Shown here: positions 1-17,898 of the stretch, in pieces | Position numbering within the stretch: position 1 is the first letter of the stretch | Layout of the letters: each line of letters begins with the position of its first letter | Virus record (IMG/VR): IMGVR_UViG_648276670_000009 | Coordinates: 1 to 17,898 of that record | Strand: one strand, 5' to 3' | Length of the DNA: 17,898 nucleotides | From: a virus | Taxonomy: Duplodnaviria; Heunggongvirae; Uroviricota; Caudoviricetes | Made by a program: the position numbers and the translations under genes | Notes under the pieces: model-generated | Database searches by the model: none | What the model was told of the DNA's origin: nothing | Seen by the model: the letters and a program-made list of their open reading frames with translations, nothing else

Positions 1-401
<401 letters not shown>

Positions 402-1077: not shown

Positions 1078-1118
1078 ACAAAAAAGCCACCGTTGCAACT
1101 TAAGAGTCACTAACGGCA
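1078..1118 (-). terminator. tR'-like intrinsic terminator just downstream of the late promoter
   Basis: Minus-strand GCTGCCGTTAG...AACGGTGGC hairpin (9-bp stem with two G-U pairs) followed by TTTTTTGTTT; lies ~10-45 nt downstream of the putative PR' start. Confidence 0.5.
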
Positions 1119-1130
1119 GCTTACCCTCTA

Positions 1131-1160
1131 ATTATGGCTAAATGGCTAATTGCATGTCAA
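1131..1160 (-). promoter_or_regulatory. Late promoter PR'-like (Q-utilisation region expected here)
   Basis: Minus strand TTGACA (1160..1155), 18-nt spacer, CATAAT (1136..1131); the -35 overlaps the last codons of Q and the -10 sits just after the Q stop. Position corresponds to lambda PR'. Confidence 0.5.
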
Positions 1161-2318: not shown

Positions 2319-2502
2319 CTCTTTCACTCCATCCGCGATGAACCATGAGAACGTCGTTGACGATGGCGTGCATTTTCCCGTCTTTATCATCAACGTATTT
2401 TCTGACCGTACCGCGACTACATTTCAGTCTGCGTGCTACTTCTGTCTGGTTTCCGTATGCTTCAACGAGCATGTCTGGAATGGTTTTTACTGAGAACGTC
2501 AT
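2296..2502 (-). CDS. ninH: NinH
   Basis: 68-aa [40 protein letters not shown]..., recalled as lambda NinH; start overlaps the ninG stop (ATGA). Confidence 0.75.
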
Positions 2503-3110
2503 GCGGCCTCACTTCTGCTATTTCGCAGGTCTTTGAGTTTCTGCTGATACTCCGCCTTGATGGCCCTGCACTCTTCGACAGTCCAGCGATGGCGGTTATG
2601 GTTTGATTCGATTTCGTCTACTGCTTCCTGCCCGATGCGATTAATCAGTTCGACGCGATACGGAACGAGATTTCCGCTTTTGTGCTGGTTGCACACCACG
2701 CATTGCTTGTGAATATTGCGTTCATCAAATCGGAGTTGAGGTTCCGCAGCAGTTGTCCGGTAATGTCCGGCATCCCACTGAGCAGACGTGAGCGTTCCGC
2801 ACGAGATACATGGTAAGTCGCGGTCTCTTTCTCTGATGAAGGCGTTTACGGCTTGTTGGGCTTGTTTAATCCAGTAACTGCGGGGCTTTAAGGCGAGTTT
2901 TCGAATCTTAAGTTTATCTTTCTGTTTCTGCTCCTCTCGTCGTCGTTTCTTCTCTGCTGCTTTTTCCGCTTTTTCGCGTTCTTTGCTTCGTCGTTCGAGT
3001 GCTATCTTGGTTCCACACTCTGGAGAGCACCACCACTGATTAGCGAATGCAGGGTGAAACCATTCCCGACATTCATCGTTTTTACATCGTCTTCGCGCTG
3101 GTTTAGCCAT
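2499..3110 (-). CDS. ninG: NinG/Rap recombination-promoting structure-specific endonuclease
   Basis: 203-aa [25 protein letters not shown]...; Cys/His-rich, lysine-rich segment; matches recalled lambda NinG (204 aa) and its position. Confidence 0.8.
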
Positions 3111-3279
3111 CGTCTTCTTCCTCGTACATTGAGCTATTCGGATCGCTCATCAGTTCTGCGCAGCAGTGCTCACACACGTGAACTTCCAGCACATGCAGCT
3201 TCTGACCGCAGTTAGCGCACGTTAAAGCCCGCTCGACGCTTTCTTTCTGGTATTGAATGGATTGTGATGGGCTAAGCAT
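3103..3279 (-). CDS. ninF: NinF
   Basis: 58-aa ORF not in the ORF track (below its size cut-off): [58 protein letters not shown]; start overlaps the upstream stop (TAATG), stop overlaps the ninG start. Recalled as lambda NinF-like. Confidence 0.65.
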
Positions 3280-3644
3280 TATTGGATTCTCTGCATCATG
3301 AGAAAGACAATCATGGCGGCGCGGAGGGGATTTTCATGTATAGCTCGCTTAGATTTACAGTAGGCCACACCGCGTGCACCCCACTCGTCTTCATCGAGAT
3401 TGATAATGCTAATCCTGTATTTTTCAATAATCGGCCATGCGTCTGCTGGGTTTGCGCATGGGTTAAAGGATCCGCGCTCAACTTCTACTTCAACTGCGTC
3501 TCCGTTTACAATGTCTCCCTCAAATGAGACAAACACCATATCGCCATTCTCACCTTCTTTGTAATCCGGTGATCCGTTATGAATGGCTTCGAATACCGCC
3601 ACGTTAATTTCAAAATCACTTAACTGTGAATAATCCATTGTCAT
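3279..3644 (-). CDS. Nin-region protein, NinX-like (unknown function)
   Basis: ORF 3279..3680 (-); start placed at the ATG at 3644, which overlaps the upstream ninE-like stop (ATGA), giving [24 protein letters not shown]... Family name is a guess from position in P22-type nin regions. Confidence 0.5.
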
Positions 3645-3817
3645 TTCCTCGCACGATATCTTAGCCACCGGATATCCCACAGGTGAGCTGTGTAATTGAA
3701 GGTTTTTACGTCAGATTCTTTTGGGATTGGCTTGCGTTTATTTCTGGAGCGTTTCGTTGGAAGGTATTTGCAGTTTTCGCAGATTATGTCGGTGATACTT
3801 CGTCGCTGTCGTCTCAT
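3641..3817 (-). CDS. NinE-like small nin-region protein
   Basis: 58-aa [58 protein letters not shown]; start overlaps the ninB stop. Recalled as lambda/P22 NinE (possibly NinD) family. Confidence 0.6.
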
Positions 3818-4254
3818 GCCGCCCTGTCTCCCCATCGCGCTTTCCATTCGAGAGCCAGTCGCGCTTCGTCTGACCACTTAACGCCACGCTCTGTACCGAA
3901 TGCCTGTATAAGCTCTAATAGCTCCGCAAATTCGCTTACACGCATCCTGCTGGTTGACTGGCCTATTACCACAAAGCCATTCCCGGCAAGGTTAGGAACA
4001 ACGTCCTGCTGCTTTAATGCTGCGGTAAACACACACTTCCAGCTTTCTGCATCCAGCCAGCGACCATGCCATTCAACCTGACGAGAGACGTCACCTAAGC
4101 AGGCCCATAGCTTCCTGTTTTGGTCTAAGCTGCGGTTGCGTTCCTGAATGGTTACTACGATTGGTTTGGTTGGGTCTGGAAGGATTTGCTGTACTGCGTG
4201 AATAGCGTTCTGCTGATGTGCTGGAGATCGAATTTCAAAGGTTAGTTTTTTCAT
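3814..4254 (-). CDS. ninB: NinB recombination protein (lambda Orf family)
   Basis: From [56 protein letters not shown]... near-identical to recalled lambda NinB (146 aa). Start at ATG 4254. Confidence 0.85.
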
Positions 4255-4270
4255 GACTTCCCTCTCCCCC

Positions 4271-4301
4271 AAATAAAAAGGCCTGCGATTACCAGCAGGC
4301 C
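4271..4301 (-). terminator. tR2-like intrinsic terminator between replication genes and the nin region
   Basis: Minus-strand hairpin GGCCTGC(loop 8 nt)GCAGGCC followed by TTTTTATTT; located between the helicase stop (4328) and the ninB start (4254), the position of lambda tR2. Confidence 0.6.
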
Positions 4302-4327
4302 TGTTATTAGCTCAGTGATGTAGATGG

Positions 4328-5704
4328 TCATACGTCAGCCCCTTGTGCATATCGTCTGCCACGTGCAGCGGGTGCATTTGATGTTGTGCAAATCTGTCTG
4401 GCTTCATCCTGGTCACATGCAACAAAGTGTCCGTTGCAGAACCGCTGGTAAACCGTACCAAGCGAGCCAAAACGGTTTTTCGTCACAATGATTTCAGCAA
4501 ATGGCGCGGCGCTACTGTTCTCGTCATATACCGCTTCCCGATAGAGCATGATGATTGAGTCTGCGTCCTGTTCAATGCTTCCTGAATCACGCAAATCTGC
4601 GTTTGTCGGGCGTTTATTTGGTCGCTTCTCAACATCGCGCGAAAGCTGACTTAGGGAGATAACTGGCGTTTTCAGGTCTTTCGCCATCGCCTTCAGGCTT
4701 CCGGAGATGTGAGCAATTGCGAGGTCGTTGCGGTCTGCTTTCGGCTTCTCAATCAGGCCAAGATAATCCGCCATGATGAGTGACAGGTTTGGATTTTCCT
4801 GTTTGTGCCGTTCTGCGATTGAGCGTATTTCTTCGACCGATAACCGCGAGGCATCGACTACCCATACATCCAAATCTGCAAGCTGACTCATGCCGTTAGC
4901 AACACGCGCCCAGCCTTCGTCATCCATCGATGCAGGATTTCGCAGTACGCTAACCGACATCCTCCCGGCGTTGGCAATGCTTCGCTCTGCAATCTGCAAT
5001 GCGCTCATTTCCATTGAGAAAATCAATACCCCGCGCCGGACGTCAGAACCAGGAATAACGCGGCTTGCAACGCCTTCGGCAATCTTCAGCGCCAGTTCGG
5101 TTTTCCCCATACCAGGACGAGCAGCGATTATCACAAGGTCTTCTGCGTTCATCCCTCCGGTGATAGCGTCAAGTTCTTCGATTCCGGTCTTCAGGGTATC
5201 TGACTCTTCTCCGTTCCTCAGACGCCTGTCAAGCGTGTCAGTGTAGTCGGTGATGATTTCCCCTAACCGTACAGGTTTAACCTCGTCACGTGGCTTTCTG
5301 ATGGCTGAAAGACGCTTTACAAGCTCATCCATCGCCTGACTCGATGTATCGATGGTTCCGCTCTGAATTGGTTCACGCATTTCATCCATGATTTCCAGCA
5401 CCAGACGGCGGTGATAGTTATCCGCGACCATTCCGGCATATCCCTTCAGGTTTGCGGCACTCGGGCAGTTTTTGCTGGTCATCAGGATTGACGTGAAATG
5501 CTCCTCTCCGCACGCCTCGGCAACCATCAGCGCATCGATTAGGTTTCTGTTTCTCGCCTGCTTGCGGATAACCTCGAAGGCTTTCCGGTAGAGCGGAATT
5601 GAAAACGCTTCCGGCTCCAGCGTTGCCAGAACGTCGCTGGCGGTTGGTGTTAATCCACCAATCAGCAGGCCACCGATAACGCTCGCTTCGATATCCTGTC
5701 TCAT
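4328..5704 (-). CDS. DnaB-family replicative helicase (P22 gp12-like)
   Basis: 458 aa; Walker [13 protein letters not shown], Walker B-like [11 protein letters not shown]-terminal domain resembling DnaB ([15 protein letters not shown]); start overlaps the stop of the upstream O-like gene. Confidence 0.8.
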
Positions 5705-6648
5705 GCAATCCCCCTGTCTGCAAACTTCCCTTCCCGTACTCCCGTTAACGAATCTTCCCTCAGCAGGTAATCAAAATCTGCCGTCCAGCCCGTGTCGTTG
5801 TCTCCGAAGTAAAACGGCTTGGCCTGATGCACAAACGCCCTGACATACGCTCTGAAACCGTCCACGTTTGGCGTTTTCAGTTGCGGGATGATTTTCTTCA
5901 GGCGGCGTTTGCGTTTCTCGTTGACCGCAACAGCATGTGGAAGTCTGTCACCGACTTCGGTGTTGTAGGCGTTCAGGAAGGATTCGTAGTCGATTCGTTC
6001 TGCCTTGCGACGTTCAGGTTTAACCTGCCCATCGCCTCCCCCATTGGGGGGTAGGGGGGTATTATTTATATTCTTGTTAATACCTTCTTGTTCATGATGT
6101 GCGGTTGTTTGTGCGGCTTCATGTGCGCTTTCATGTGTGGCATGTACGCTGAAAGCCGCGCCATTACTGGCTTCATCATGTGCGGCATCATGTGCGGTTG
6201 TTTGTGCGGCTTCATGTGCGGGTGAATTGTCCATTTTTTGAGCATATTCATGGTAATTTGTGATGGTGATCACACGACCTTTTTGCTTCTCTCCATCAAT
6301 GGAGATCATCCCCTCTTTCACAAAAACCTGAAGCATCCGCTCAACCTGATCGCGGCTTGCTGGCTTGCCATGCCTGTCGCATAACTGAAGACCTAAATCA
6401 GCTGCTGTCACAACCAGTTGACCGGGTTGCAGATGCCATTCATGACCTTTGAAATTCGCTTTGTATGGCTTTCTGGCGGCATTCAGGAGAAGGTTTTCCC
6501 ACAGGGTGCGAAGATAAACATCTTTCGCCCATGACTGTTTCAGAATGCTCCGGTACAACGGAATGTAACCAGTTTTCTGGTTCTCCATCCTGTTGCTCCT
6601 GCGCTCGTGTGCGGCGCTGAAATCGTAGATTTTTGCTGTATTGCTCAT
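5701..6648 (-). CDS. Replication initiator (lambda O / P22 gp18-like) with internal iteron-encoded linker
   Basis: 315 aa; N-terminus [10 protein letters not shown] resembles lambda O MTNTAKILNF; central repetitive segment [18 protein letters not shown]...[13 protein letters not shown] is encoded by the direct repeats at 6066..6235; sits upstream of the helicase as in P22 18-12. Confidence 0.7.
6066..6235. repeat. Putative replication origin iterons inside the initiator gene
   Basis: Repeated TCATGTGCGG / CATGTGCG(G/C/T)-type units, with a duplicated ~40-nt block (catcatgtgcggttgtttgtgcggcttcatgtgcg). In lambda, ori iterons also lie within O. Confidence 0.6.
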
Positions 6649-6650
6649 AA

Positions 6651-6923
6651 CTACCTGCCTTGACGAAAGACCTTAAGAACATCGTTAAACTGACTTACGG
6701 ATATGTCTTCTTTGAGCAGCTTTTCCAGAAATGCGTTTGGAATGAACGTATATCCCTCCTCTTTTGGTAGAGACGGGAGCAACGCCCTCGCCTCAGCCTT
6801 CAGAAGCTCAGTTCTGGCAACTTTCACAAAAGAGATTTGAGTTCTTTCATCAATGGAACGAAGGAAGCGCAAACGCTTAGCTTCTTTGTGTGTATCAGGT
6901 GGATTAAAGCCTTTGTTTCGCAT
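6651..6923 (-). CDS. Hypothetical protein (90 aa) between cII and the initiator gene
   Basis: In the long ORF 6651..7235 only the part from the ATG at 6923 (MRNKGFNPPDTHKE...) lies downstream of cII; GAGGT sits 7 nt upstream of it. No recognised family. Confidence 0.45.
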   Translation of the reverse strand: MRNKGFNPPDTHKEAKRLRFLRSIDERTQISFVKVARTELLKAEARALLPSLPKEEGYTFIPNAFLEKLLKEDISVSQFNDVLKVFRQGR

Positions 6924-6934
6924 ATAATTACCTC

Positions 6935-7002
6935 GTTGGATGTTGTTAAAATTCCATTTGTATTTGATCAGAACGCTCGGTCTTGCACACCGGGCGTTTT
7001 TT
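6935..7002 (+). ncRNA. OOP-like antisense RNA overlapping the cII 3' end
   Basis: Plus-strand TATAAT at 6923..6928 and, ~65 nt downstream, a hairpin CGCTCGGT(loop)ACCGGGCG followed by TTTTTTATT (6974..7002) inside the 3' end of cII, the arrangement of lambda oop. Ends are approximate. Confidence 0.45.
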
Positions 7003-7242
7003 ATTGGTGAGAATCGAAGCAACTTGTCGTGCCAATCGAGCCATGTCGTCGTCGACGACGCCCCATTCAAGAACAGCAAGCAGCATTGAGAACTTTGGAA
7101 TCCAGTCCCTCTTCCACCTGCTGATCTGAGACTTATCAACGCCAACAGCTTCCGCTGTCTTCTCAGTTCCAAGCATTGCGATTTTGTTAAGCAACGCACT
7201 CTCGATTCGTAGAGCCTCGTTGCGTTTGTTTGCACGAACCAT
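6946..7242 (-). CDS. cII: Transcriptional activator CII
   Basis: From MVRANKRNEALRIESALLNKIAMLGTEKTAEAVGVDKSQISRWKRDWIPKFSMLLAVLEWGVVDDDMARLARQV..., near-identical to recalled lambda CII. The ORF-track extension upstream of this Met is not used. Confidence 0.9.
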   Translation of the reverse strand: MVRANKRNEALRIESALLNKIAMLGTEKTAEAVGVDKSQISRWKRDWIPKFSMLLAVLEWGVVDDDMARLARQVASILTNKKRPVCKTERSDQIQMEF

Positions 7243-7321
7243 ATGTAAGTATTTCCTTAGATAACAATTGATTGAATGTATGCAAATAAATGCACACACC
7301 ATAGGTGTGGTTTAATTTGAT

Positions 7322-7353
7322 GCCCTTTTTCAGGGCTGGGATGTGTAAGAGCG
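7322..7353 (-). promoter_or_regulatory. nutR (boxA + boxB) N-utilisation site
   Basis: Minus strand reads CGCTCTTACA (boxA) then GCCCTGAAAAAGGGC (boxB hairpin), between cro and cII. Confidence 0.8.
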
Positions 7354-7361
7354 GGAATGTC

Positions 7362-7577
7362 TTAAGCGGCTTTGTGTTCCGGCGGGAACACGTCATCAAG
7401 ACTGACTTTTGCGCCTAACTTGTTTAGGCATGCAACAAGAGCGCGGCATGTTTTAAGGTCTGGGAAGCGACGACCAGATTCCCAATGCCCAATAGCTCCC
7501 TGTGTGCATCCAACCGCCTTAGCAAGTGTTGTTTGAGAGATATTCAGTGACTCTCGATATTTTCGTAGGTTGCTCAT
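7362..7577 (-). CDS. cro: Cro-like repressor (XRE-type HTH, non-lambda specificity)
   Basis: Start at the internal ATG 7577 (MSNLRKYRESLNISQTTLAKAVGCTQGAIGHWESG...), preceded by GGAGGG; divergent from cI across an operator region; an HTH similar to the N-terminal domain of the adjacent cI. Confidence 0.75.
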   Translation of the reverse strand: MSNLRKYRESLNISQTTLAKAVGCTQGAIGHWESGRRFPDLKTCRALVACLNKLGAKVSLDDVFPPEHKAA

Positions 7578-7688
7578 ATGCCCTCCATAGTAACCATGAG
7601 ACAATAATACGATATGTACTTTTGGAATGCAAACAAAAAATACATCTTGTGCATGGATGGTTTTAGTACAGAGCGTAATAATAAGGAT
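7578..7688. promoter_or_regulatory. OR-like divergent promoter/operator region (PR toward cro, PRM toward cI)
   Basis: On the minus strand, TTGCAT (7632..7627), 17-nt spacer, TATTAT (7609..7604) upstream of the cro leader; several GTAC / AATAC-containing partial palindromes are candidate operator half-sites. Operator boundaries are not resolved. Confidence 0.55.
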
Positions 7689-8348
7689 ATGAAAATGAAA
7701 TGGTATGAACTGGCTAGATCCAGAATGAAAGAGCTCGGCATAACTCAAGAGAAGTTAGCTGAAGAGCTTGGTATGACGCAGGGTGGAATTGGTCACTGGT
7801 TGCGCGGATCTCGTCATCCATCTCTTGACGAGATTGGTGTGGTGTTTAAATACCTTGGTATTGATAACGTCTCATTCAACCACGACGGTACATTTTCACC
7901 TGTTGGCGAATACTCATCTGCCCCCGTTAAAAAACAATATGAGTACCCTGTTTTTTCTCATGTTCAGGCCGGGATGTTCTCGCCTGAGCTTAGAACCTTT
8001 ACCAAAGGTGATGCGGAGAGATGGGTCAGCACAACCAAAAAAGCCAGTGATTGTGCGTTTTGGCTTGAAGTTGAAGGTAATTCCATGACCGCGCCAACAG
8101 GATCCAAGCCAAGCTTTCCTGACGGGATGTTAATTCTCGTTGACCCTGAGCAGGCTGTTGAGCCAGGTGATTTCTGCATAGCCAGACTTGGTGGTGACGA
8201 GTTTACCTTCAAGAAACTGATCAGGGATAGCGGTCAGGTGTTCCTACAGCCACTAAACCCGCAATATCCAATGATTCCATGCAATGATAGCTGTTCCGTA
8301 GTAGGGAAAGTTATCGCCAGCCAGTGGCCTGAAGAGACATTTAGTTAA
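7689..8348 (+). CDS. cI: CI repressor: lambda-like C-terminal S24/LexA-type autocleavage domain fused to a divergent N-terminal HTH domain
   Basis: C-terminal ~135 aa ([39 protein letters not shown]...[15 protein letters not shown]) near-identical to recalled lambda CI; the N-terminal ~90 aa is unlike lambda. Start could be 7689 or 7695 (MKMKW / MKW); the track ORF starts further upstream at 7614. Confidence 0.85.
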
Positions 8349-8380
8349 CAGCCTCACCACTCTAAAACACACAACAATAA

Positions 8381-8409
8381 CCCGACCTTAGCGTCGGGTT
8401 TTCTTTTTC
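8381..8409 (+). terminator. Intrinsic terminator downstream of cI
   Basis: CCCGAC(loop CTTAGC)GTCGGG hairpin followed by TTTTCTTTTT, 33 nt after the cI stop. No rex-like genes lie between cI and pL. Confidence 0.6.
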
Positions 8410-8473
8410 CAAAATATAAACCCATTAAATACAAAGTGTTATAAAAAACTAATTATATTTAGAACATTTTGTA

Positions 8474-8502
8474 TTGACTCGATAAAGTACAAATCGTACT
8501 AT
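8474..8502 (+). promoter_or_regulatory. pL-like early leftward promoter (with OL operators upstream and overlapping)
   Basis: TTGACT (8474..8479), 17-nt spacer, TACTAT (8497..8502), followed by ATCAGCAGGACGCACT as in the recalled lambda pL transcript start; AATACAAA(A/G)TGT motif in both orientations at ~8427..8472 and an AGTAC-N5-GTACT palindrome at 8487..8501 are candidate operators. Confidence 0.7.
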
Positions 8503-8542
8503 TTAGCCATCAGCAGGACGCACTAACCGCCATGAAGGTGAG

Positions 8543-8572
8543 GCTCTTAAAAATTTAGCCCTGAAGAAGGGC
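8543..8572 (+). promoter_or_regulatory. nutL (boxA + boxB)
   Basis: GCTCTTAA (boxA) followed by GCCCTGAAGAAGGGC (boxB stem-loop), upstream of N. Confidence 0.8.
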
Positions 8573-8682
8573 AGCATTCAAAGCAGAAAGCTTTGAGTAG
8601 CGCGAAATGCAGCTGCAAGACAGCAACCGTGGAGATAAGCATCACGGCGCGTTACTCAAAGCTAACTGACAGGAGAATCCAG

Positions 8683-9009
8683 ATGGATGCACAAACACGC
8701 CGCCGCGAACGTCGCGCAGAGAAACAGGCTCAATGGAAAGCAGCAAATCCCCTGTTGGTTGGGGTAAGCGCAAAACCAGTTAACCGCCCTATTCTCTCGC
8801 TGAATCGCAAACCGAAATCACGAGTAGAAAGCGCACTGAATCCGATAGACCTTACGGTGCTGGCTGAATACCACGAACAGATTGAAAGCAACCTGCAACG
8901 TATTGAGCGCAAGAATCAGCGCACATGGTACAGCAAGCCACGCAGTGAAATGGGTGTGACTTGTGTTGGTCGCCAGAAAATGAAATTAGGCAGCAAGCCA
9001 CTTATTTGA
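8683..9009 (+). CDS. N: Antitermination protein N
   Basis: From MDAQTRRRERRAEKQAQWKAANPLLVGVSAKPVNRPILSLNRKPKSRVESALNPIDLTVLAEYH..., near-identical to recalled lambda N (Arg-rich boxB-binding motif); AGGAG RBS before ATG 8683. The track ORF start at 8593 is not used. Confidence 0.9.
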   Translation: MDAQTRRRERRAEKQAQWKAANPLLVGVSAKPVNRPILSLNRKPKSRVESALNPIDLTVLAEYHEQIESNLQRIERKNQRTWYSKPRSEMGVTCVGRQKMKLGSKPLI

Positions 9010-9018
9010 GGTGATGGA

Positions 9019-9651
9019 ATGAGCAATAGAATTGATGGAGAGATTATCAGGGGCGTAATTAATGACCCTCGCCTTTTTCCAGGAATAAAGCGCTCAAGAG
9101 CAGGAGCATCTCAGCTCTTTGGTGAGCGCATAGTCAAAGGCGGGAAGCTTATACAAGAATGCGACTTCGAGCTAACTCCTCCAGTAAAAAGCTGGTACTC
9201 AAAGGAAATTGATGGGGTTTGGCATTGGGTTGAGGGTTGCGATCACTGCAATGGTTCTCCTCAGGACTGGGCGTATTGCAGATGCGAAAAGCATGATGTT
9301 TGTGTTGATTGCGGAATTGATAGAGAGCACGCGTCAACGTCACAAACCATAGCTGGAATGGGTGCTGTCTGGGGATGTCGTGGTGGATGGCGATGCAATG
9401 ATTGCCAAGAGAAAATTAATCAGGAACGCCTAGCAGCAGCTGAGGCAAGAATTATTCCTGACGATGAATATGATGAGCTGGATTTTTGGCGCAGAGATGA
9501 GGCTCGCTGCCCATGGTGTAAGGCTGAAATATCCACCGATGAATCATACGACGCCTGCGAAGAAGAGCATACATGCTATGAATGCGAGCGTAAGTTCAAG
9601 CTTACAGCTGAGCATTCAGTATCGTGGACAACGATTCGCTCAATCAAATAG
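9019..9651 (+). CDS. Hypothetical Cys-rich protein (multiple CxxC pairs; probable zinc-binding)
   Basis: 210 aa with CDHC, CRC, CVDC, C-x5-CNDC, CPWC, C-x5-CYEC motifs; GAGGTG RBS; first gene after N, in the slot occupied by ral/sieB in lambda. No recognised family. Confidence 0.6.
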   Translation: MSNRIDGEIIRGVINDPRLFPGIKRSRAGASQLFGERIVKGGKLIQECDFELTPPVKSWYSKEIDGVWHWVEGCDHCNGSPQDWAYCRCEKHDVCVDCGIDREHASTSQTIAGMGAVWGCRGGWRCNDCQEKINQERLAAAEARIIPDDEYDELDFWRRDEARCPWCKAEISTDESYDACEEEHTCYECERKFKLTAEHSVSWTTIRSIK

Positions 9652-9696
9652 GCCGCATAGTCGGCCTTCTTTTGGCATAAACAACATGGGGTAAAA

Positions 9697-10023
9697 ATGA
9701 AAGTTTTAATGGTTTATGAAAATGTTCCAGAGTCGACTGAAATCTATATTTTTGATGCCAATGAAGATGAAGTTAACGATTTAAAATTGTCTCACGGCAA
9801 TTACACAAATGCTAATTGTGATGAAAGCATCGAAAAAGCACTATCACGTGTTCTTGTCAGAATCAGCGATCCAGAACATTGTGATAATGATTGGCTTTCT
9901 TATTGTGGAGCGGTAAAAACTGATGCAGGAAAATGGAGTAAAAGTAAAGTTGATAACTCAACTCCAATCATTATGAAAGATAGTGATATTGAAATGGTAA
10001 TAATAACCGGAATGATTATGTAG
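9697..10023 (+). CDS. Hypothetical small acidic protein (108 aa), AT-rich moron-like gene
   Basis: ATG ORF with visibly lower GC than its neighbours; ~20 Asp/Glu versus ~10 Lys/Arg by my count; followed by a 9-bp-stem hairpin (10033..10060) and an intrinsic terminator. No recognised family. Confidence 0.5.
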   Translation: MKVLMVYENVPESTEIYIFDANEDEVNDLKLSHGNYTNANCDESIEKALSRVLVRISDPEHCDNDWLSYCGAVKTDAGKWSKSKVDNSTPIIMKDSDIEMVIITGMIM

Positions 10024-10129
10024 GCTGCGAATAAGCACTGTGTATTCATTCAAACGAGTGAATACACGGAGCAATGTCGCTCGTAACTAAACAGGAGCCG
10101 ACTTGTTCTGATTATTGGAAATCTTCTTT

Positions 10130-10156
10130 GCCCTCCTATGTGAGGGCAATTTTTTT
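10130..10156 (+). terminator. Intrinsic terminator (tL-type) upstream of the 322-aa gene
   Basis: GCCCTC(loop CTATGT)GAGGGC followed by AATTTTTTT. Confidence 0.6.
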
Positions 10157-10168
10157 GATGGAGGATAT

Positions 10169-11137
10169 ATGAGTGAAGTAACAGACTTAGTTGTTATTGA
10201 AAAAGCAAATGCAATGACTGTATTTCAGTCTGCAGACCAGATTGAAGAAATCCTTCAAAAGGTTGAACGTGAAGTTATGTCCTTTGTGCCTGATATCACA
10301 ACGGCAAAGGGCAGAAAGGAGATCGCTTCTCTGGCGTATAAAGTTGCGCAGACGAAAACATATCTCGATGGTCTTGGCAAAGACCTTGTTGCTGAACTGA
10401 AGGAAATTCCAAAGCTAATTGATGCTAACCGCAAGACAGTGCGTGATCGCCTTGATGAGCTGAAAGCCAAGGCGCGCCAGCCTCTTACTGATTATGAGGA
10501 AGAACAGGCGCGGATTAAAGCCGAAGAAGAAGCTAAGGCAGCAGCTGAAGCTCTCGCAAAGCAAATTGAGTCTGACCATGAAATAGCTATTTTGATGGAT
10601 CGCGAATTTGACCGCCAAAGAGAAGAGGCAAGACTCAAAGCGGAGCAGGAAAAGCGAGAGCATGAAGAACGCTTAAAAAAAGAAGCTGAAGAGAAAGCCA
10701 GAGCTGAAGCCGAAGAAAAGGCAAAAGCCGAAATTGAAGCAGCAGCAAGGCGAGAAGCAGAAGCTAAGGCCGCAGCGGAACGTGCAGAGCGTGAACGCAT
10801 TGAAGCCGAGCAACGAGCACAGCGCGAAGCAAAAGAGGCAGCAGAACGAGCTGAAAGAGAAAAGCAGGCGGCAATTGAAGCAGAACGCCGAAAAGCACAG
10901 GAGGAGGCTGAACGAATCCGGCGCGAGGCTGAAGCAAAAGAGCAAGCCAGAATAGCAGAAGAAAAAAGAATCAAGGAAGAGGAAGAGTGTAGAGCAAAGG
11001 ATAAAGCTCACCGGAAAGAAGTAAATAACAAAATACTTGCTGACCTTATCAAGGTTGGCGCATCAGAAGATGTTGCTAAAAATATCATAACAGCCATCGT
11101 AAAAGGCGAAGTATTCGCAACAAAAATAACCTACTAA
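10169..11137 (+). CDS. Hypothetical protein with a long charged Glu/Ala/Lys/Arg-rich alpha-helical (coiled-coil-like) central region
   Basis: 322 aa from ATG 10169 (GGAGG RBS 5 nt upstream); the track ORF starts earlier at 10115. Central ~150 aa is low-complexity EEAKAAAEALAKQ...AEEKAKAEIEAAARREAEAKAAAERAERERIEAE; the globular N-terminus and C-terminus are not recognised. Confidence 0.65.
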   Translation: MSEVTDLVVIEKANAMTVFQSADQIEEILQKVEREVMSFVPDITTAKGRKEIASLAYKVAQTKTYLDGLGKDLVAELKEIPKLIDANRKTVRDRLDELKAKARQPLTDYEEEQARIKAEEEAKAAAEALAKQIESDHEIAILMDREFDRQREEARLKAEQEKREHEERLKKEAEEKARAEAEEKAKAEIEAAARREAEAKAAAERAERERIEAEQRAQREAKEAAERAEREKQAAIEAERRKAQEEAERIRREAEAKEQARIAEEKRIKEEEECRAKDKAHRKEVNNKILADLIKVGASEDVAKNIITAIVKGEVFATKITY

Positions 11138-11161
11138 TAAAACCAACATAAGGAACCACCC

Positions 11162-11293
11162 ATGATTTACGCAATCGCGGGAGGCGCTCGCATGGGTGCC
11201 TTCCAACTAAATGAATCTTTACTTGAACGAATCACCCGTAAATTACGTGACGGATGGAAAAGAGTTGAGGTCTTATTATGCGCAATGAAATAG
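11162..11293 (+). CDS. cIII: CIII-like protease (FtsH) inhibitor, divergent C-terminus
   Basis: 43-aa ORF (below the track cut-off) MIYAIAGGARMGAFQLNESLLERITRKLRDGWKRVEVLLCAMK; core ESLLERITRKLRDGWKR matches recalled lambda CIII. Confidence 0.7.
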   Translation: MIYAIAGGARMGAFQLNESLLERITRKLRDGWKRVEVLLCAMK

Positions 11294-11430
11294 CCATCAA
11301 TCACCAGATGCTTCGTGCTGCACAGAACAAAGCAGTAATAGCCAGATTTATTGGTGATTCCAAAATGTGGCTTGAAGCAAATAAAGCGATGAAATCAGCT
11401 ATCAACCTTCCATGGTATCGCAGGAAATGA
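11278..11430 (+). CDS. kil: Kil-like host cell-division inhibitor
   Basis: 50-aa ORF MRNEIAINHQMLRAAQNKAVIARFIGDSKMWLEANKAMKSAINLPWYRRK; resembles recalled lambda Kil (…TFIGDEKMF…); overlaps the cIII stop; position matches lambda cIII-kil. Confidence 0.55.
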   Translation: MRNEIAINHQMLRAAQNKAVIARFIGDSKMWLEANKAMKSAINLPWYRRK

Positions 11431-11504
11431 GTTTTACAGATAACTGGTCAGACGAAGAATTCATTCGTCAGATGAAAGAATTAATCGGTAACGAAGGAGA
11501 TATT

Positions 11505-11675
11505 CATGTCACTTGCAACCACAGTGAAGGAGAGCAAGTTACAGAGACGCATGTACACGCAGCAGGCGTTAATGTATCGCCAGAAGGGAGATCGTGAAGG
11601 TGTTCGCGTATTTTTAAATGCGGCAAAGACTGAAGTATTAAATCAGCGTTATTTCCTTGGGCCATGTCCATTCTG
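11505..11675 (+). CDS. Hypothetical small protein (56 aa) upstream of erf (Arf-like position)
   Basis: ATG 11505 preceded by AGGAG at 7-nt spacing; MSLATTVKESKLQRRMYTQQALMYRQKGDREGVRVFLNAAKTEVLNQRYFLGPCPF. An alternative overlapping frame (track ORF 11412..11597, or ATG 11427 coupled to the kil stop) cannot be excluded. Confidence 0.45.
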
Positions 11676-11686
11676 AGAACAAACAT

Positions 11687-12292
11687 ATGAGCAAAGAATT
11701 TTACGCAAAACTGGCAGCTATTCAGGAGAACTTGAACGCGCCAAAGAATCAGTACAACTCATTCGGTAAATATAAATACAGAAGCTGCGAAGACATTCTT
11801 GAAGGCGTTAAGCCGTTACTGAATGGTCTGTTTTTATCAATCAGCGATGAAGTTGTGTTGATTGGTGATCGGTATTACGTGAAAGCCACGGCAACTATTA
11901 CCGATGGCGAAAACAGTCATACGGCAACCGCTCTTGCACGAGAGGAAGAAAGCAAGAAAGGAATGGATTCTGCACAAGTTACGGGAGCTACAAGCTCTTA
12001 TGCACGCAAGTATTGCCTCAATGGTTTGTTCGGCATTGATGATGCGAAAGATGCAGATACCGACGAGCATAAACATCAGCAGAACGCAGCAGCAAAGCAA
12101 TCAAAACCATCACCTACACCTGAACAGGTTCTAAAAGCATTCACTGACGCAGCATTGCAGAAAAACACCGTAGAAGAGCTTAAACAGGCGTTCGCCAAAG
12201 CGTGGAAGATGCTCGAAGGCACACCTGAGCAGCACAAAGCGCAGGACGTTTACAACATCAGACGAGACGAATTAGAAGGAGCGGCTGCTTAA
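11687..12292 (+). CDS. erf: Erf-family single-strand annealing recombination protein (P22 Erf-like)
   Basis: From MSKEFYAKLAAIQENLNAPKNQYNSFGKYKYRSCEDILEGVKPLLNGLFLSISDEVVLIGDRYYVKATATITDGENSH..., closely matching recalled P22 Erf. The track ORF begins at a TTG at 11657; the ATG at 11687 is used. Confidence 0.85.
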   Translation: MSKEFYAKLAAIQENLNAPKNQYNSFGKYKYRSCEDILEGVKPLLNGLFLSISDEVVLIGDRYYVKATATITDGENSHTATALAREEESKKGMDSAQVTGATSSYARKYCLNGLFGIDDAKDADTDEHKHQQNAAAKQSKPSPTPEQVLKAFTDAALQKNTVEELKQAFAKAWKMLEGTPEQHKAQDVYNIRRDELEGAAA

Positions 12293-12675
12293 TGGCACAT
12301 TCGATTACTGTAAGACTAAACAAGCCCGCAAGAGAGTTTCAGGCCGGGGAAAATATCGGATTCAACATCCGTGCTGGCGTTCAGTATTACGATCGCCAGA
12401 CAAAAAAGAAAGAATGGACAAACTACAGCGCCGTTGTATTTGCCAAGCCGGGAGCGCAAGCGGATTACTACCGTAGTGTTCTTGTTGAAGGTGGCATTGT
12501 GGAAATTACCGGAGAAAACATCAGGGTTGATGTTTATCAGGGGCAAAATGGTCAATCAATCACTCTTGAATTACTGAATGCAAAGATTGGATTTGCAACT
12601 TCAGGAAACAGCCAACAGCAGCAAAGTAGTAACCAGCAGAACACTCCTGTATACGACGATTCCATCCCATTCTGA
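12292..12675 (+). CDS. Single-stranded-DNA-binding protein-like (acidic C-terminal tail ending DDSIPF)
   Basis: 127 aa; Gln/Ser-rich linker and terminal ...PVYDDSIPF resemble the SSB C-terminal protein-interaction tail (DDDIPF); start overlaps the erf stop (TAATG). Confidence 0.65.
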   Translation: MAHSITVRLNKPAREFQAGENIGFNIRAGVQYYDRQTKKKEWTNYSAVVFAKPGAQADYYRSVLVEGGIVEITGENIRVDVYQGQNGQSITLELLNAKIGFATSGNSQQQQSSNQQNTPVYDDSIPF

Positions 12676-12698
12676 TTTAGAAAAATAAGGATTTAATT

Positions 12699-12992
12699 AT
12701 GCCAGCGCCTCTGTATGGTGCGGATGACGCGCGCCGCTGTTCCGGCAATTCCGTATCGGAGGTGCTGGATAAATTCAGAAAAAACTACGACCGGATAATG
12801 TCGCTACCGCAGGAAACGAAAGAGGAAAAGGAATTTCGCCATTGTATATGGCTTGCAGAGAAAGAAGAGCGCGAGCGAATTTACCAGACATCAATCCGAC
12901 CATTCCGCAAAGCAACATATACCCACTTCCCTGAAATCGACCCGCGCCTGCGTAATTACCGCTCACGCTATGGCGCTATCAGTAATAACTGA
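12699..12992 (+). CDS. Hypothetical protein (97 aa)
   Basis: ATG ORF with AAGGA upstream; no recognised family. Confidence 0.5.
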
Positions 12993-13002
12993 GGAATTTA
13001 CC

Positions 13003-13170
13003 ATGAGAGGACTTGCATACAATCCCGGCATTCTTCCGGCAGAAATGATTATTCGCCAACGCGTAAAGCCAATGCCATCGAGAGAGGAATTGCTTAAGAG
13101 AAATTCTTTTCCATCAGTGAATCAAAACAAATATCTGAATGCGATGTGGCGCAAAGGAGGCAGCCAGTGA
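13003..13170 (+). CDS. Hypothetical protein (55 aa)
   Basis: ATG 13003 preceded by GAGGAA; lies in the frame of track ORF 12853..13170, whose upstream part overlaps the previous gene. Confidence 0.45.
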
Positions 13171-13811
13171 ATAACCGCTTTTACATGATGTGCTTGCGTG
13201 AAACTGTGGGTAATAACGCTTCATTCCATTGCCATAACGGCAATGGTTACAGTTCTAATATCGATCGCGCTCATGTTTACACGCTGGAAGAAGCCCAAAA
13301 AGCCTGGAATTGTGGTCGAGATATCGATCAGCCTGTTTGCGCTGATAGCGTGGATGCAATGGCAGTGTGGCACGTTGATTGCCAGTACATCCCTACAGAA
13401 AGCCTGATTGAGTCAGATTGCACTGCGTATGTGGCCTACAAAAAAGGTAGCTGGAACGGCAACGATGTTTACTGGCTTCAACACGGTGGATTGCCAACAG
13501 ATGACTTCAGTAAAGCGACCATCTTTAGCGTCGCCAACAAAAACGAACCAGGAATAGTTTGGTTGCCATTTTCCATTGCTGATGCAGCAAAGCGCAGGAC
13601 GTTCAATATCAATAACTTTAACCGCAGAACAATGGTTCAGGGCGCAGGTTTGGTCATGCCTGACTGGTTGAAAGAGCAGAACAGAAGAAAGAAGTCGCGA
13701 AGCGGGAAGGTGCGTTGGAATTGTCCGCATTGCGGAAAAATCTCCTGGCAGTACAGCCCATATGATTTTGAAGGCTGTAGTGATTACAACTGTGAAGGAT
13801 GGCGAGAATGA
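13167..13811 (+). CDS. Hypothetical protein (214 aa) with C-terminal Cys-rich zinc-ribbon-like motif
   Basis: GTG 13167 preceded by AAAGGAGG at 6-nt spacing and overlapping the upstream stop (the track ORF starts at 13146); C-terminus WNCPHCGK...CSDYNCEGW. No recognised family. Confidence 0.55.
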
Positions 13812-14295
13812 CAATTGACTATCAGTCACTGCGTGAGGCGGCAGAGAAAGCAACGTGGGGAGACTGGGACTCATATAAACACACCGTGGCGCACGTGGTT
13901 ATGAGGTCCGACTAAGTAGTCAGGCCATTGCGCAACACGTTCTGAAAAACAACGCTGAATTTATTGCTGCCTTTAATCCAAAGGTTGCTTTGGCACTACT
14001 GGATGAACGGGAAAGAAACCAGCAATACATCAAACGCCGCGACCAGGAGAACGAGGATATTGCGCTAACGGTAGGGAAGCTGCGCGTTGAGCTTGAAGCA
14101 GAAAAACAGCGGGCAAAAGTTCTATTTATGGAAAATGCTCGGCTTAAGTCAGGTATAGCCGGTCTGATACACCTCGGTATTCGATATGCAGATGTTGAGG
14201 TCATGAAAATTGCTGGAGATGCCCAGCTTTCTACCCCATGCACTGACAGCATCATAAACAGCATTGCAACAGGCATTCGCATCAAAGGAGAGTAA
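13799..14295 (+). pseudogene. ea22-like gene, disrupted (N-terminal 38-codon piece and C-terminal piece in different frames)
   Basis: ATG 13799 encodes [38 protein letters not shown] then stops at 13913..13915; a different frame continues open from ~13916 (...QAIAQHVLKNNAEFIAAFNPKVALALLDERERNQQYIKRRDQENEDIALTVGKLRVELEAE...) to 14295. Both pieces resemble recalled Ea22-family proteins. Confidence 0.5.
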
Positions 14296-14497
14296 TATGA
14301 GCAGGAATACGGGTTTGTAAAAGATAACGCTTGTGAAAATGCTGAATTTCGCGTCGTCTTCACAGCGATGCCAGAGTCTGTAGTGTCAGATGATGACCGT
14401 ACTCAAACATCGGGTTGAGTATTATCTTACTGTTTCTTTACATAAACATTGCTGATACCGTTTAGCTGAAACGACATACATTGCAAGGAGTTTATAA

Positions 14498-14779
14498 ATG
14501 AGTATCAATGAGTTAGAGTCTGAGCAAAAAGATTGGGCGTTATCAATGTTGTGCAGATCCGGTGTCTTGTCTCCATGCAGACATCACGAAGGTGTTTATG
14601 TAGATGAAGGTATAGATATAGAGTCGGCATACAAATATTCCATGAAGGTTTATAAGTCTAATGAAGACAAATCCCCATTCTGCAATGTGCGAGAAATGAC
14701 TGATACCGTGCAAAATTATTATCACGAGTACGGTGGAAACGATACTTGCCCTCTCTGTACAAAATATATAGATGATTAA
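14498..14779 (+). CDS. Hypothetical small Cys-containing protein (93 aa), AT-rich moron-like gene
   Basis: ATG with AAGGAG at 8-nt spacing; low GC; five Cys including CPLC; bracketed by a ~200-bp non-coding leader and an intrinsic terminator. Confidence 0.55.
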   Translation: MSINELESEQKDWALSMLCRSGVLSPCRHHEGVYVDEGIDIESAYKYSMKVYKSNEDKSPFCNVREMTDTVQNYYHEYGGNDTCPLCTKYIDD

Positions 14780-14797
14780 ACCAAATATTACATAACA

Positions 14798-14826
14798 ATC
14801 CTCGCACTCGCGGGGATTTCTTTTAT
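14798..14826 (+). terminator. Intrinsic terminator after the 93-aa gene
   Basis: ATCCTCGC(loop ACTC)GCGGGGAT followed by TTCTTTTAT. Confidence 0.55.
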
Positions 14827-14837
14827 ATGGGGATAAT

Positions 14838-15638
14838 ATGACCATCCACTTTCACGGCAGCCCAATATGGGGTGATGAGCATGCCCCTACAGATATGCTG
14901 ATTAAAGTCCTTTACCGTGATGGTGGGGCTTTTGTTTCATTTGCCAGACCAGAGCAGATGAAAAAGATTGCCATGTTCCCTTGTGATATACGCCTTGATA
15001 ACGGCGCTTTTAGCGACTGGATGAAAGCATTAAAGAAAGGCACTCCGGTAGACTGGAGTAAGAGACGAGCAAAATTCTACGACTTTGTTGGGAAGTGGTT
15101 CAGCAGAATTGAATGGTTTCTTATACCTGACGTTATCGAAGGGACAGAGGCAGAAAACGACGAGCAGATTGAGTTGGTTCCTGATTGGCTAAAATCAAAA
15201 GCGGTTCCGGTCTGGCATACCGACGAATCAATTGAACGTCTTTTACGCCTTTCTGGCAAATTTGAATGGGTGGCGATTGGATGCTGCGGCCCACACAGGC
15301 ACATACGCTCTAAATGGTGGGAACAGAGAATGGATGAAGTTTTCACTGAGCTTTATATCAATCGTAATTTGAAAGTGAAAATTCATGGTCTTCGAATGCT
15401 CGACGTGAGAGTTCTTGGTATGTATCCGTTCGCCAGTGCGGATTCTACTAATGTTGCTGTTAACGTACCGAAGACAGAGAAGCGATTTCCTGAGATTACC
15501 GACAAACTGGCACGTACAGCTGTACTTCGCTCAGCTATTGAAAAGGTGCACCCGCCATCGATATCAGCATGGGTAGACAGAAAGATGAGAGAGCCGGCGC
15601 AAGCCGGTTTTTTATTTGAATTCACCGACGCCGCTTAA
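14838..15638 (+). CDS. Hypothetical protein (266 aa), conserved-looking but unassigned
   Basis: Long ATG ORF in the accessory region between ea22 and the excisionase gene. Motifs noted: YRDGGAFVSF, GCCGPHRH. No confident family assignment. Confidence 0.6.
   Translation: MTIHFHGSPIWGDEHAPTDMLIKVLYRDGGAFVSFARPEQMKKIAMFPCDIRLDNGAFSDWMKALKKGTPVDWSKRRAKFYDFVGKWFSRIEWFLIPDVIEGTEAENDEQIELVPDWLKSKAVPVWHTDESIERLLRLSGKFEWVAIGCCGPHRHIRSKWWEQRMDEVFTELYINRNLKVKIHGLRMLDVRVLGMYPFASADSTNVAVNVPKTEKRFPEITDKLARTAVLRSAIEKVHPPSISAWVDRKMREPAQAGFLFEFTDAA
15593..15616 (+). terminator. Terminator-like hairpin (GCAA tetraloop) with U-tract inside the 3' end of the 266-aa CDS
   Basis: GCCGGC-GCAA-GCCGGT followed by TTTTTTATTT, ending 22 nt before the CDS stop. 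Confidence 0.35.
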
Positions 15639-15695
15639 TGCGGATTTCTTTTATCTGAACTCGCTACGGCGGGTTTTGTTTTATGGAGATGATAA

Positions 15696-15863
15696 ATGCA
15701 CTTCCGAGTCACAGGAGAATGGAATGGAGAGCCATTCAACAGAGTTATCGAAGCAGAGGACATCAACGACTGCTATGACCACTGGATGTTGTGGGCGCAG
15801 ATAGCACATGCAGACGTAACCAATATTCGAATTGAAGAACTGAAAGAACACCAAGCCGCCTGA
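15696..15863 (+). CDS. Hypothetical small protein (55 aa), commonly seen near xis in enterobacterial prophages
   Basis: ATG 15696 with GGAGATG upstream; MHFRVTGEWNGEPFNRVIEAEDINDCYDHWMLWAQIAHADVTNIRIEELKEHQAA; below the track cut-off. Confidence 0.5.
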   Translation: MHFRVTGEWNGEPFNRVIEAEDINDCYDHWMLWAQIAHADVTNIRIEELKEHQAA

Positions 15864-15877
15864 TGGCGGTTTTTTAT
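15855..15877 (+). terminator. Intrinsic terminator after the 55-aa gene
   Basis: GCCGCC(loop TGAT)GGCGGT followed by TTTTTTATT; the stop codon lies in the loop. Confidence 0.6.
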
Positions 15878-15885
15878 TGCCTGAT

Positions 15886-15901
15886 TTGCAGGTTCGATTC
15901 C
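15886..15901 (+). other. tRNA T-arm-like fragment (TTGCAGGTTCGATTCC) upstream of the excisionase gene; possible att remnant
   Basis: The 16-nt sequence has a canonical T-loop (TTCGATT) preceded by stem GCAGG; together with the fragment at 16195..16209 it would form GCAGG-TTCGATT-CCTGC-AGGGGAC-A-CCA, the 3' half of a tRNA (recalled as argW-like). Confidence 0.5.
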
Positions 15902-15920
15902 CTATTCGGAGATAGCACTC

Positions 15921-16121
15921 ATGCAACACGAACTACAGCCTGATTCACTGGTTGATTTGAAATTCATCATGGCTGATACTGGCTTCGGTAAAACCTTCAT
16001 CTATGACCGGATTAAGTCCGGAGACCTGCCTAAAGCCAAAGTTATCCACGGGCGAGCAAGATGGTTATATCGTGACCATTGTGAATTCAAAAATAAGCTC
16101 TTAAGCCGCGCCAATGGGTAA
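15921..16121 (+). CDS. torI: AlpA/TorI-family excisionase (winged-helix Xis-like), located at the att-proximal end of the prophage
   Basis: 66 aa MQHELQPDSLVDLKFIMADTGFGKTFIYDRIKSGDLPKAKVIHGRARWLYRDHCEFKNKLLSRANG; AlpA-type pattern (TG-x4-IY-x2-I-x2-G-x-LP ... W); the identification as TorI of KplE1/CPS-53 is from memory and position next to an argW-type att, and is not verified. Confidence 0.6.
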   Translation: MQHELQPDSLVDLKFIMADTGFGKTFIYDRIKSGDLPKAKVIHGRARWLYRDHCEFKNKLLSRANG

Positions 16122-16194
16122 AATAGCGGGTAAAATATTTTTCACATCTAAAAAACACCATTCCAATCAATCCCCTGCCGCGTCAAGTAGATGT

Positions 16195-16209
16195 CTGCAG
16201 GGGACACCA
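16195..16209 (+). other. Prophage attachment-site core: 3'-terminal 15 nt of a tRNA (CTGCAGGGGACACCA, argW-like) marking the prophage/chromosome junction
   Basis: Sequence ends in the acceptor 3' strand + discriminator + CCA, but no tRNA body precedes it (16135..16194 is unrelated). Typical of the displaced tRNA 3' end left at a prophage end. Confidence 0.6.
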
Positions 16210-16650
16210 GATACCCTTCAAACGAAATCTACCTTCACCCCGTAAAAGATGGGTTTGGCAGCACACTTGCCTTATATCTACTCATTTTTACTGCAACAGG
16301 TTGAAATCTCAGCACTGTCAGAAAGCGCTGATGACTAAACAGCCCTGGGCCGGGCGATGTAACCATCACACAGAATCCTGATAGCGAAATATGGCGTGAC
16401 TCGATACTTCACTCCGCAATGCATTCCTTGATGAATTCGCAGGACCGTGATACACGGGACAGGTCACTGAATGACGACAATGTCCTGGAAATCAGCGAAC
16501 CGCGCATCTGAAGTACATTTGAGCGACTGTACCAGAACATGAATGAGGCGTTTGGATTAGGCGATTATTAGCAGGGCTAAGCATTTTACTATTATTATTT
16601 TCCGGTTGAGGGATATAGAGCTATCGACAACAACCGGAAAAAGTTTACGT

Positions 16651-17898
16651 CTATATTGCTGAAGGTACAGGCGTTTCCATAACTATTTGCTCGCGTTTTT
16701 TACTCAAGAAGAAAATGCCAAATAGCAACATCAGGCAGACAATACCCGAAATTGCGAAGAAAACTGTCTGGTAGCCTGCGTGGTCAAAGAGTATCCCAGT
16801 CGGCGTTGAAAGCAGCACAATCCCAAGCGAACTGGCAATTTGAAAACCAATCAGAAAGATCGTCGACGACAGGCGCTTATCAAAGTTTGCCACGCTGTAT
16901 TTGAAGACGGATATGACACAAAGTGGAACCTCAATGGCATGTAACAACTTCACTAATGAAATAATCCAGGGGTTAACGAACAGCGCGCAGGAAAGGATAC
17001 GCAACGCCATAATCACAACTCCGATAAGTAATGCATTTTTTGGCCCTACCCGATTCACAAAGAAAGGAATAATCGCCATGCACAGCGCTTCGAGTACCAC
17101 CTGGAATGAGTTGAGATAACCATACAGGCGCGTTCCTACATCGTGTGATTCGAATAAACCTGCATAAAAGACAGGAAAAAGTTGTTGATCAAAAATGTTA
17201 TAGAAAGACCACGTCCCCACAATAAATATGACGAAAACCCAGAAGTTTCGATCCTTGAAAACTGCGATAAAATCCTCTTTTTTTACCCCTCCCGCATCTG
17301 CCGCTACGCACTGGTGATCCTTATCTTTAAAACGCATGTTGATCATCATAAATACAGCGCCAAATAGCGAGACCAACCAGAAGTTGATATGGGGACTGAT
17401 ACTAAAAAATATGCCGGCAAAGAACGCGCCAATAGCATAGCCAAAAGATCCCCAGGCGCGCGCTGTTCCATATTCGAAATGAAAATTTCGCGCCATTTTT
17501 TCGGTGAAGCTATCAAGCAAACCGCATCCCGCCAGATACCCCAAGCCAAAAAATAGCGCCCCCAGAATTAGACCTACAGAAAAATTGCTTTGCAGTAACG
17601 GTTCATAAACGTAAATCATAAACGGTCCGGTCAAGACCAGGATGAAACTCATACACCAGATGAGCGGTTTCTTCAGACCGAGTTTATCCTGAACGATGCC
17701 GTAGAACATCATAAATAGAATGCTGGTAAACTGGTTGACCGAATAAAGTGTACCTAATTCCGTCCCTGTCAACCCTAGATGTCCTTTCAGCCAAATAGCG
17801 TATAACGACCACCACAGCGACCAGGAAATAAAAAAGAGAAATGAGTAACTGGATGCAAAACGATAGTACGCATTTCTGAATGGAATATTCAGTGCCAT
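16651..17898 (-). CDS. cscB: LacY-family oligosaccharide:H+ symporter, sucrose permease CscB-like
   Basis: 415-aa ORF with 12 hydrophobic segments, starting at the last base of the window (ATG 17898..17896); recalled as matching CscB of the E. coli csc sucrose regulon, which is known to lie near argW. Confidence 0.7.
   Translation of the reverse strand: MALNIPFRNAYYRFASSYSFLFFISWSLWWSLYAIWLKGHLGLTGTELGTLYSVNQFTSILFMMFYGIVQDKLGLKKPLIWCMSFILVLTGPFMIYVYEPLLQSNFSVGLILGALFFGLGYLAGCGLLDSFTEKMARNFHFEYGTARAWGSFGYAIGAFFAGIFFSISPHINFWLVSLFGAVFMMINMRFKDKDHQCVAADAGGVKKEDFIAVFKDRNFWVFVIFIVGTWSFYNIFDQQLFPVFYAGLFESHDVGTRLYGYLNSFQVVLEALCMAIIPFFVNRVGPKNALLIGVVIMALRILSCALFVNPWIISLVKLLHAIEVPLCVISVFKYSVANFDKRLSSTIFLIGFQIASSLGIVLLSTPTGILFDHAGYQTVFFAISGIVCLMLLFGIFFLSKKREQIVMETPVPSAI

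Follow-up and report, generated by a model that had tools for sequence, protein, structure and literature searches.

A conserved tRNA T-arm segment in the torI leader of an argW-integrated lambdoid prophage as a candidate operator

Introduction

Why should the leader of an excisionase gene hold an exact piece of the tRNA gene into which its prophage is inserted? The question is raised by a stretch of viral DNA of 17,898 nucleotides (IMG/VR record IMGVR_UViG_648276670_000009, positions 1 to 17,898; hereafter the window), in which two fragments of the 3' half of a tRNA gene, here called X and Y, lie on either side of torI, a recombination directionality factor (RDF) gene. A sequence-only reading had taken them for the parts of a split tRNA, either in a prophage end of KplE1 type or in a nested or decayed integration, and had suggested for X, the upstream fragment, an ancestral att remnant or an excisionase-binding region. 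The layout of this prophage end is already published, is textbook KplE1-type and adds nothing new. X is a different matter, as it is deeply conserved, sits in the leader of the gene that decides prophage excision, and is the only element of the module for which we found no discussion in the literature searched, the primary binding-site papers lying outside the reach of that search.

Results

The region 15886–16209 is almost beyond doubt the right (attR) end of a lambdoid prophage with an argW integration module of the KplE1/HK620/Sf6 type, and it shows every defining feature of that family that is testable here. The torI gene (15921–16121, + strand) encodes a 66-aa RDF, an excisionase and TorR inhibitor, identified by the annotation of relatives and by a match of its product to PDB 1Z4H ('Tor inhibition protein') over residues 1–66 (E=6.6e-43). 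The protein is 100% identical to TorI in K-12-type E. coli loci (L007, L010) and is an AlpA/HTH_17-like winged helix, for which the Pfam match is sub-threshold only. Downstream lies the attR core Y, CTGCAGGGGACACCA (16195–16209, + strand), equal to argW positions 61–75 including the CCA. Of the 16 nt in the published KplE1/CPS-53 core, CTGCAGGGGACACCAT (PMC2951348), it supplies 15, the 16th base, 16210, being host DNA; the K-12 equivalent of the 15-nt Y is annotated as a pseudogene, pawZ. Between the torI stop and the core is a gap of 73 bp (16122–16194), as had been read from the sequence, and the observation that no integrase separates the excisionase from the core extends further, since none is found between torI and the host gene cscB.

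Host chromosome occupies 16210–17898, including a cscB-type MFS sugar permease gene (16651–17898, − strand) named from a relative's annotation. An empty-site query of argW fused straight to window 16210–16500 was recovered in one unbroken piece of 100% identity, and the 1,415 E. coli genomes that cover at least 80% of it represent the unoccupied attB, with argW intact and nothing besides. The window stops short of attL and contains no complete tRNA gene by ARAGORN. Its best relative is strain 673, 99.4% identical over the last 3.1 kb only; the remaining window is a lambdoid early region, a mosaic unlike that of strain 673, and for window 1–14800 no genome reaches 80% cover. In strain 673 the far prophage end carries tRNA-Arg and then intS, about 48 kb from torI, and the tRNA-Arg(CCT) called there by ARAGORN ends ...AATTGCAGGTTCGATTCCTGCAGGGGACACCA. 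The sequence-only reading had placed the excisionase at attR and the integrase at a far attL next to the intact tRNA, and the TorI match, the published core, the empty sites and the argW–intS junction of this relative all bear it out.

In circular Sf6 and HK620 genomes the gene order is torI homologue, core, int, and in the published arrangement the RDF and integrase genes flank attP, are parted by integration and are each transcribed independently. IntS recombined the phage attP core with the argW 3' end, leaving torI, the 73-bp P arm and the 15-nt core copy Y at attR and placing intS beside the restored tRNA at the opposite prophage end. Dependence of excision on IntS, TorI and IHF is known for KplE1 and HK620 (PMC2951348, PMC3509656). 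A 135-bp attR that starts at the attR-IHF2 primer, CTCTTAAGCCGCGCCAATGG, suffices for excision in vitro (PMC3509656); placed by eye, the primer site lies at 16098–16117 (+ strand) and marks the left edge of that fragment.

Within the P arm, two direct GGGTAAAA repeats (16116–16123 and 16128–16135, + strand) probably serve as arm-type sites for IntS. Thirteen lineages keep CGGGTAAAA unchanged, a TAAA motif is common to the P' arm-type sites, and the HK620 annotation labels the stretch with the GGGTAAAA repeats as an attP repeat. Closer to the core, CCCCTGC (16172–16178, + strand) is present in all lineages and forms an inverted repeat with the core GCAGGGG (16197–16203), with 18 nt between the arms, which straddles the left edge of the core. 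In Edwardsiella the two arms co-vary (TCCCTGC with GCAGGGA), and they may be two core-type sites for IntS, or else another architectural element. A 43-aa ORF (16114–16245, + strand) begins within the end of torI and crosses the att core into host DNA, at the position of HK620 hkaB and Sf6 gene 17 and with no Pfam match. Reading through the core, it would have its C-terminus altered by integration, and it is probably not a real gene. In several contigs (L135, L213, L115, L148, L160 and L127) the attR core is followed, in place of host DNA or intS, by an apparent second element with a different, seemingly P4-like integrase start, judged by eye, which suggests tandem islands at argW.

Upstream of torI, window 15642–15883 is about 97% identical to phage lambda 29098–29339, just upstream of lambda xis, and this homology ends at about 15883. 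The matching stretch includes a 55-aa ORF (15696–15863) and an intrinsic terminator found by a terminator scan (15853–15878, + strand; stem AAGCCGCC/GGCGGTTT with a T-run) that closes the lambda-like early-left genes. The integration module has thus been swapped onto a lambda-like early-left operon almost where lambda xis would start.

Compared with known systems, the module of KplE1 (CPS-53), HK620, Sf6 and CUS-3 has the same TorI, the same core, the same 73-bp P arm with GGGTAAAA repeats, the same division of RDF at attR and integrase at attL, and the same distance from X to the torI ATG, whereas the rest of this prophage is a different lambdoid mosaic from KplE1. The host flank here is the csc sucrose locus rather than the dsdC of K-12, and core base 16 is therefore G, not T. 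The int-xis-attP module of lambda, under pI/pL control with sib retroregulation, likewise closes its early-left operon with the RDF, behind a terminator common to both, and a pI-type promoter has been proposed at the RDF start here too. It differs in that here attP lies between the RDF and integrase genes, which integration separates, the target is a tRNA gene, and the RDF is of the AlpA/HTH_17-like winged-helix kind.

X, TTGCAGGTTCGATTCC (15886–15901, + strand), sits 19 nt ahead of the ATG in the torI leader, followed by a putative Shine-Dalgarno sequence, GGAGA (15908–15912, + strand), that is kept as (C/T)GGAG in nearly all lineages. It is an exact copy of argW positions 46–61 and takes in the 5' strand of the T-stem, the T-loop and two bases at the start of the 3' strand. 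The strings TTGCAGGTTCGATTCC and CTGCAGGGGACACCA occur once each in the window with 2 mismatches allowed, where about 0.01 chance matches are expected for either; both fragments named by the sequence-only reading are therefore present and exact, and against the intact tRNA they abut with one C in common, at position 61. X stands at an equal distance from the torI ATG in Sf6, HK620, UTI89 and K-12, and in MG1655 it is found, unannotated, at NC_000913.3 2476275–2476290. Its presence in the free phages Sf6 and HK620 means that it was not created by integration in this host, and from these comparisons X can be taken, with hardly any doubt, as part of the phage module.

Are X and Y then the two halves of a split tRNA? 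Both are exact argW pieces that together span the T-arm, acceptor strand and CCA end, as had been claimed, but to call them split halves is misleading, because a second T-loop lies beside the core. In most non-E. coli modules the sequence left of the core reads (G)TTCGATGT(A/C)TGCAGG, where the tRNA has GTTCGATTCCTGCAGG. A degenerate T-loop thus already adjoins the core on the P side of attP, overlapping X in tRNA coordinates. X is a second, better-preserved copy of the T-arm rather than half of a split one, and this is not accounted for if torI had simply been inserted into one tRNA-derived segment. Unique, non-overlapping halves that were made by an insertion and are absent from the free element, as a split tRNA would have, are not what this locus holds. 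A continuation of the tRNA after X in degenerate form was considered and rejected, as by eye only about 6–7 of 12–13 acceptor-strand positions match and the stretch overlaps the purine-rich ribosome-binding site.

The occurrence of X was followed across 200 RDF loci from genome and viral contigs, with 44 distinct RDF proteins that are 56–100% identical among alignable full-length homologues. An initial scan of viral contigs gave only 100%-identical TorI loci, and diverged RDF queries were then used. For 28 of the 44 distinct RDF proteins a T-loop-like box precedes the start codon by no more than 60 nt, in modules that include those of Erwinia, Serratia, Pantoea, Edwardsiella, Hafnia, Citrobacter and Enterobacter. 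Every module recovered aims at an argW-type core and none at another tRNA. Measured from the first base of the RDF stop codon, the distance to the start of the core TGCAGG is 77 nt in all but one of the 28 loci with the core pattern.

When 17 diverged lineages are aligned, the box GTTCGATT.C, with its GTTCG pentamer (15892–15899 and 15901, + strand, in the window), is the sole invariant non-coding block, its 9 columns being invariant against a mean column identity of 62%; these lineages were picked for a recognisable X, a choice that exaggerates the constancy seen. All sequence upstream varies, as do the T-stem bases (TTGCAG) and the spacer that leads to the ribosome-binding site. Within torI, all of these lineages agree at just 10 of 66 third codon positions, with a mean pairwise identity of 0.60 at these positions, and the longest invariant run of the coding sequence is 7 nt. 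Since the box is invariant while the silent sites of torI are only 60% identical, X is likely to be under purifying selection.

The box has also been duplicated and lost. Tandem duplications of separate origin occur in Erwinia-type lineages (17-nt period), in L140 and in L011, and decayed copies of X are found in a few close relatives, for example L122 and L138. Several lineages, including Klebsiella-type, Cronobacter and Dryocola, lack X in an otherwise intact module; the Klebsiella-type locus L179 has an intact P' arm with GTTCG sites. X is thus dispensable. The X-less loci L015 and L132 read ...gcctg|gag... before the RDF ATG, which fits a deletion between CTGG microhomologies of L012-type sequences, and by this comparison X was probably ancestral in their clade and lost secondarily.

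Discussion

Our comparisons lead to an account in which this locus is the attR end of an argW module and X is an operator in the torI leader. Taken as a whole we consider this account slightly better than evenly supported, while the operator reading of X by itself, which derives from sequence comparison, is plausible but falls a little short of an even chance. X, lying between the upstream terminator and the torI ribosome-binding site, would be a protein-binding site for TorI or IntS that tunes excisionase expression without a part in strand exchange. That X is not needed for strand exchange follows from the 135-bp attR used in vitro, which excludes it. Tandem duplication is usual for protein-binding sites, and the duplications of the box in three lineages are counted in favour of an operator. 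So is the lack of a conserved RNA structure that would explain the box. Against an operator stand the lineages whose modules are intact without X, the in vitro attR that excludes it, and the scan between the terminator and torI, which gave no sigma-70-like promoter for it to control.

TorI might be the ligand, as the mapped TorI sites contain GTTCG. Five such sites, I1–I5, have been mapped on attL, each of 8 bp around GTTCG, GATCG or GTCCG and resembling CAGTTCGC, and the intS promoter is repressed by TorI via these attL sites. The 8-mer AGGTTCGA of X agrees with 6 of the 8 positions of [CT][AG]G[TA][TC]CG[CT], including GTTCG; X has GGTTCG in common with I4 (TGGTTCGC), and the likeness extends to CAGTTCGA in the X of some lineages. 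However, position 8, following GTTCG, is A in X of all 17 lineages; the I-sites, about 30 of which were read by position, have C or T there. The I-sites also come in cooperative arrays, unlike the single copy of X in E. coli phages, and X lies across the core from them at a distance of about 300 bp. Against TorI it also counts that the same 16 nt, as part of argW, were inside the attL fragments used in TorI EMSA, and the TorI papers report five sites only, all across the core from these 16 nt. The core-binding domain of IntS might bind X instead. As X repeats exactly the attB flank adjoining the core, this domain is as good a candidate as TorI. The box may further be a mimic of the attB T-arm, a decoy for a recombination protein that reads the argW T-loop at the chromosomal site, be it TorI or the IntS core-binding domain, although we regard this narrower version as doubtful. 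If the mimic reading is true, excisionase expression would follow how abundant the recombination proteins are or how far they occupy their sites, and X would be an undescribed regulatory element in a well-studied module, suggesting that a tRNA-derived att sequence has been recruited as an operator. The X string gave no match in a full-text literature search whose reach stopped short of the primary binding-site papers. X is cheap to test, in a system whose proteins have all already been purified.

The main rival to an operator is a neutral relic at the mosaic edge of the module. X would then be a functionless remainder, carried along at the module's left edge, of an argW-derived attP segment that was older or longer, or of a hybrid att junction made by recombination between two argW-targeting elements. 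The position of X near a mosaic boundary, with lambda homology ending at about 15883, is in keeping with such an origin. So is the variety of sequence that joins about 0–25 nt upstream of X, with at least two unrelated contexts in E. coli, joining about 20 nt upstream in its phages, and others again in Erwinia, Serratia and Edwardsiella. Tandem islands are common at argW, making hybrid junctions plausible, and a relic would also sit comfortably with a segment that is outside the minimal attR, missing from some lineages and lost by apparent deletion in L015 and L132. Yet a neutral segment should have decayed at about the silent-site rate, to some 60% identity, rather than keep 9 columns invariant in 17 lineages, and the box holds while the adjoining T-stem bases and spacer vary freely. 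Together with the tandem duplications in three lineages this makes a relic unlikely in our view. Still less can be said for the alternative that the sequence-only reading had offered, a nested or decayed integration, which would have put torI into what was left of a tRNA in this host chromosome. X and Y do adjoin in argW, with their single-base overlap, but the arrangement of X, torI and Y already exists at the same positions in circular free-phage genomes and across genera, the degenerate T-loop directly left of the core in relatives overlaps X, and unoccupied sites have intact argW alone; the free-phage genomes refute this explanation, and its probability is close to nil.

Two further explanations assign X to the expression of torI or intS by other means. 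X could belong to a pI-type promoter activated by cII, as its spacer and a portion of its −35 region, with transcription starting at or just inside torI; integrase would then be made without excisionase during the establishment of lysogeny. HK620 is annotated with a cII site (TTGCCTGATTTGC) and an 'integration' promoter here, Sf6 with a pI promoter, and the first TTGC is, by homology, common to lambda's own pI region. The lambda cII consensus is TTGC-N6-TTGC, flanking the −35 region. The spacing of the TTGC repeat is, however, N5 in the E. coli phages, the repeat is missing in the Erwinia, Serratia, Pantoea, Edwardsiella and Hafnia modules that retain the box, and the invariant bases are GTTCGATT rather than the TTGC boxes, so that a conserved TTGC-N6-TTGC with a promoter, as cII-dependence would entail, is not what we observe. 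No sigma-70-like promoter was detected between the terminator (15853–15878) and torI; activator-dependent promoters are expected to score poorly in such scans. On balance a pI-type element is a decidedly improbable explanation of X. More improbable by far is that X works at the RNA level, with the torI leader transcript mimicking a T-arm or folding into a hairpin that hides the Shine-Dalgarno sequence. The minimum-energy fold does pair UUCGA with UCGGA, overlapping the Shine-Dalgarno sequence, and T-arm-like stems of 4–5 bp are possible in the Edwardsiella and Serratia versions. Against this, the single-sequence fold has z = −0.77, the RNAalifold consensus reaches −1.07 kcal/mol with essentially no covariation, and no Rfam family is found on the strand of X. 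These scans weakly refute the RNA explanations, which were rejected. On the opposite strand, Rfam STnc130, a Salmonella sRNA, matches 15844–15971 (− strand) opposite X and the start of torI at 25 bits against a gathering threshold of 55 (E=0.26), probably by chance.

Whatever its function, X has already misled annotation. The CUS-3 record CP000711.1 starts and ends at X (L003 1–16; L002 1745–1760), labelled there as a 16-nt attL/attR core, and, bounded in this way, it omits torI and the true attR. The right end of the UTI89 prophage (L026 2046–2371), 100% identical to that of CUS-3, continues from X to torI and then to the real core, which reads CTGCAGGGACACCAT and is without one G. The missing G in the UTI89-type core probably explains the mistake. 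X forms a second perfect 16-nt direct repeat with argW, and automated callers of prophage boundaries could err likewise.
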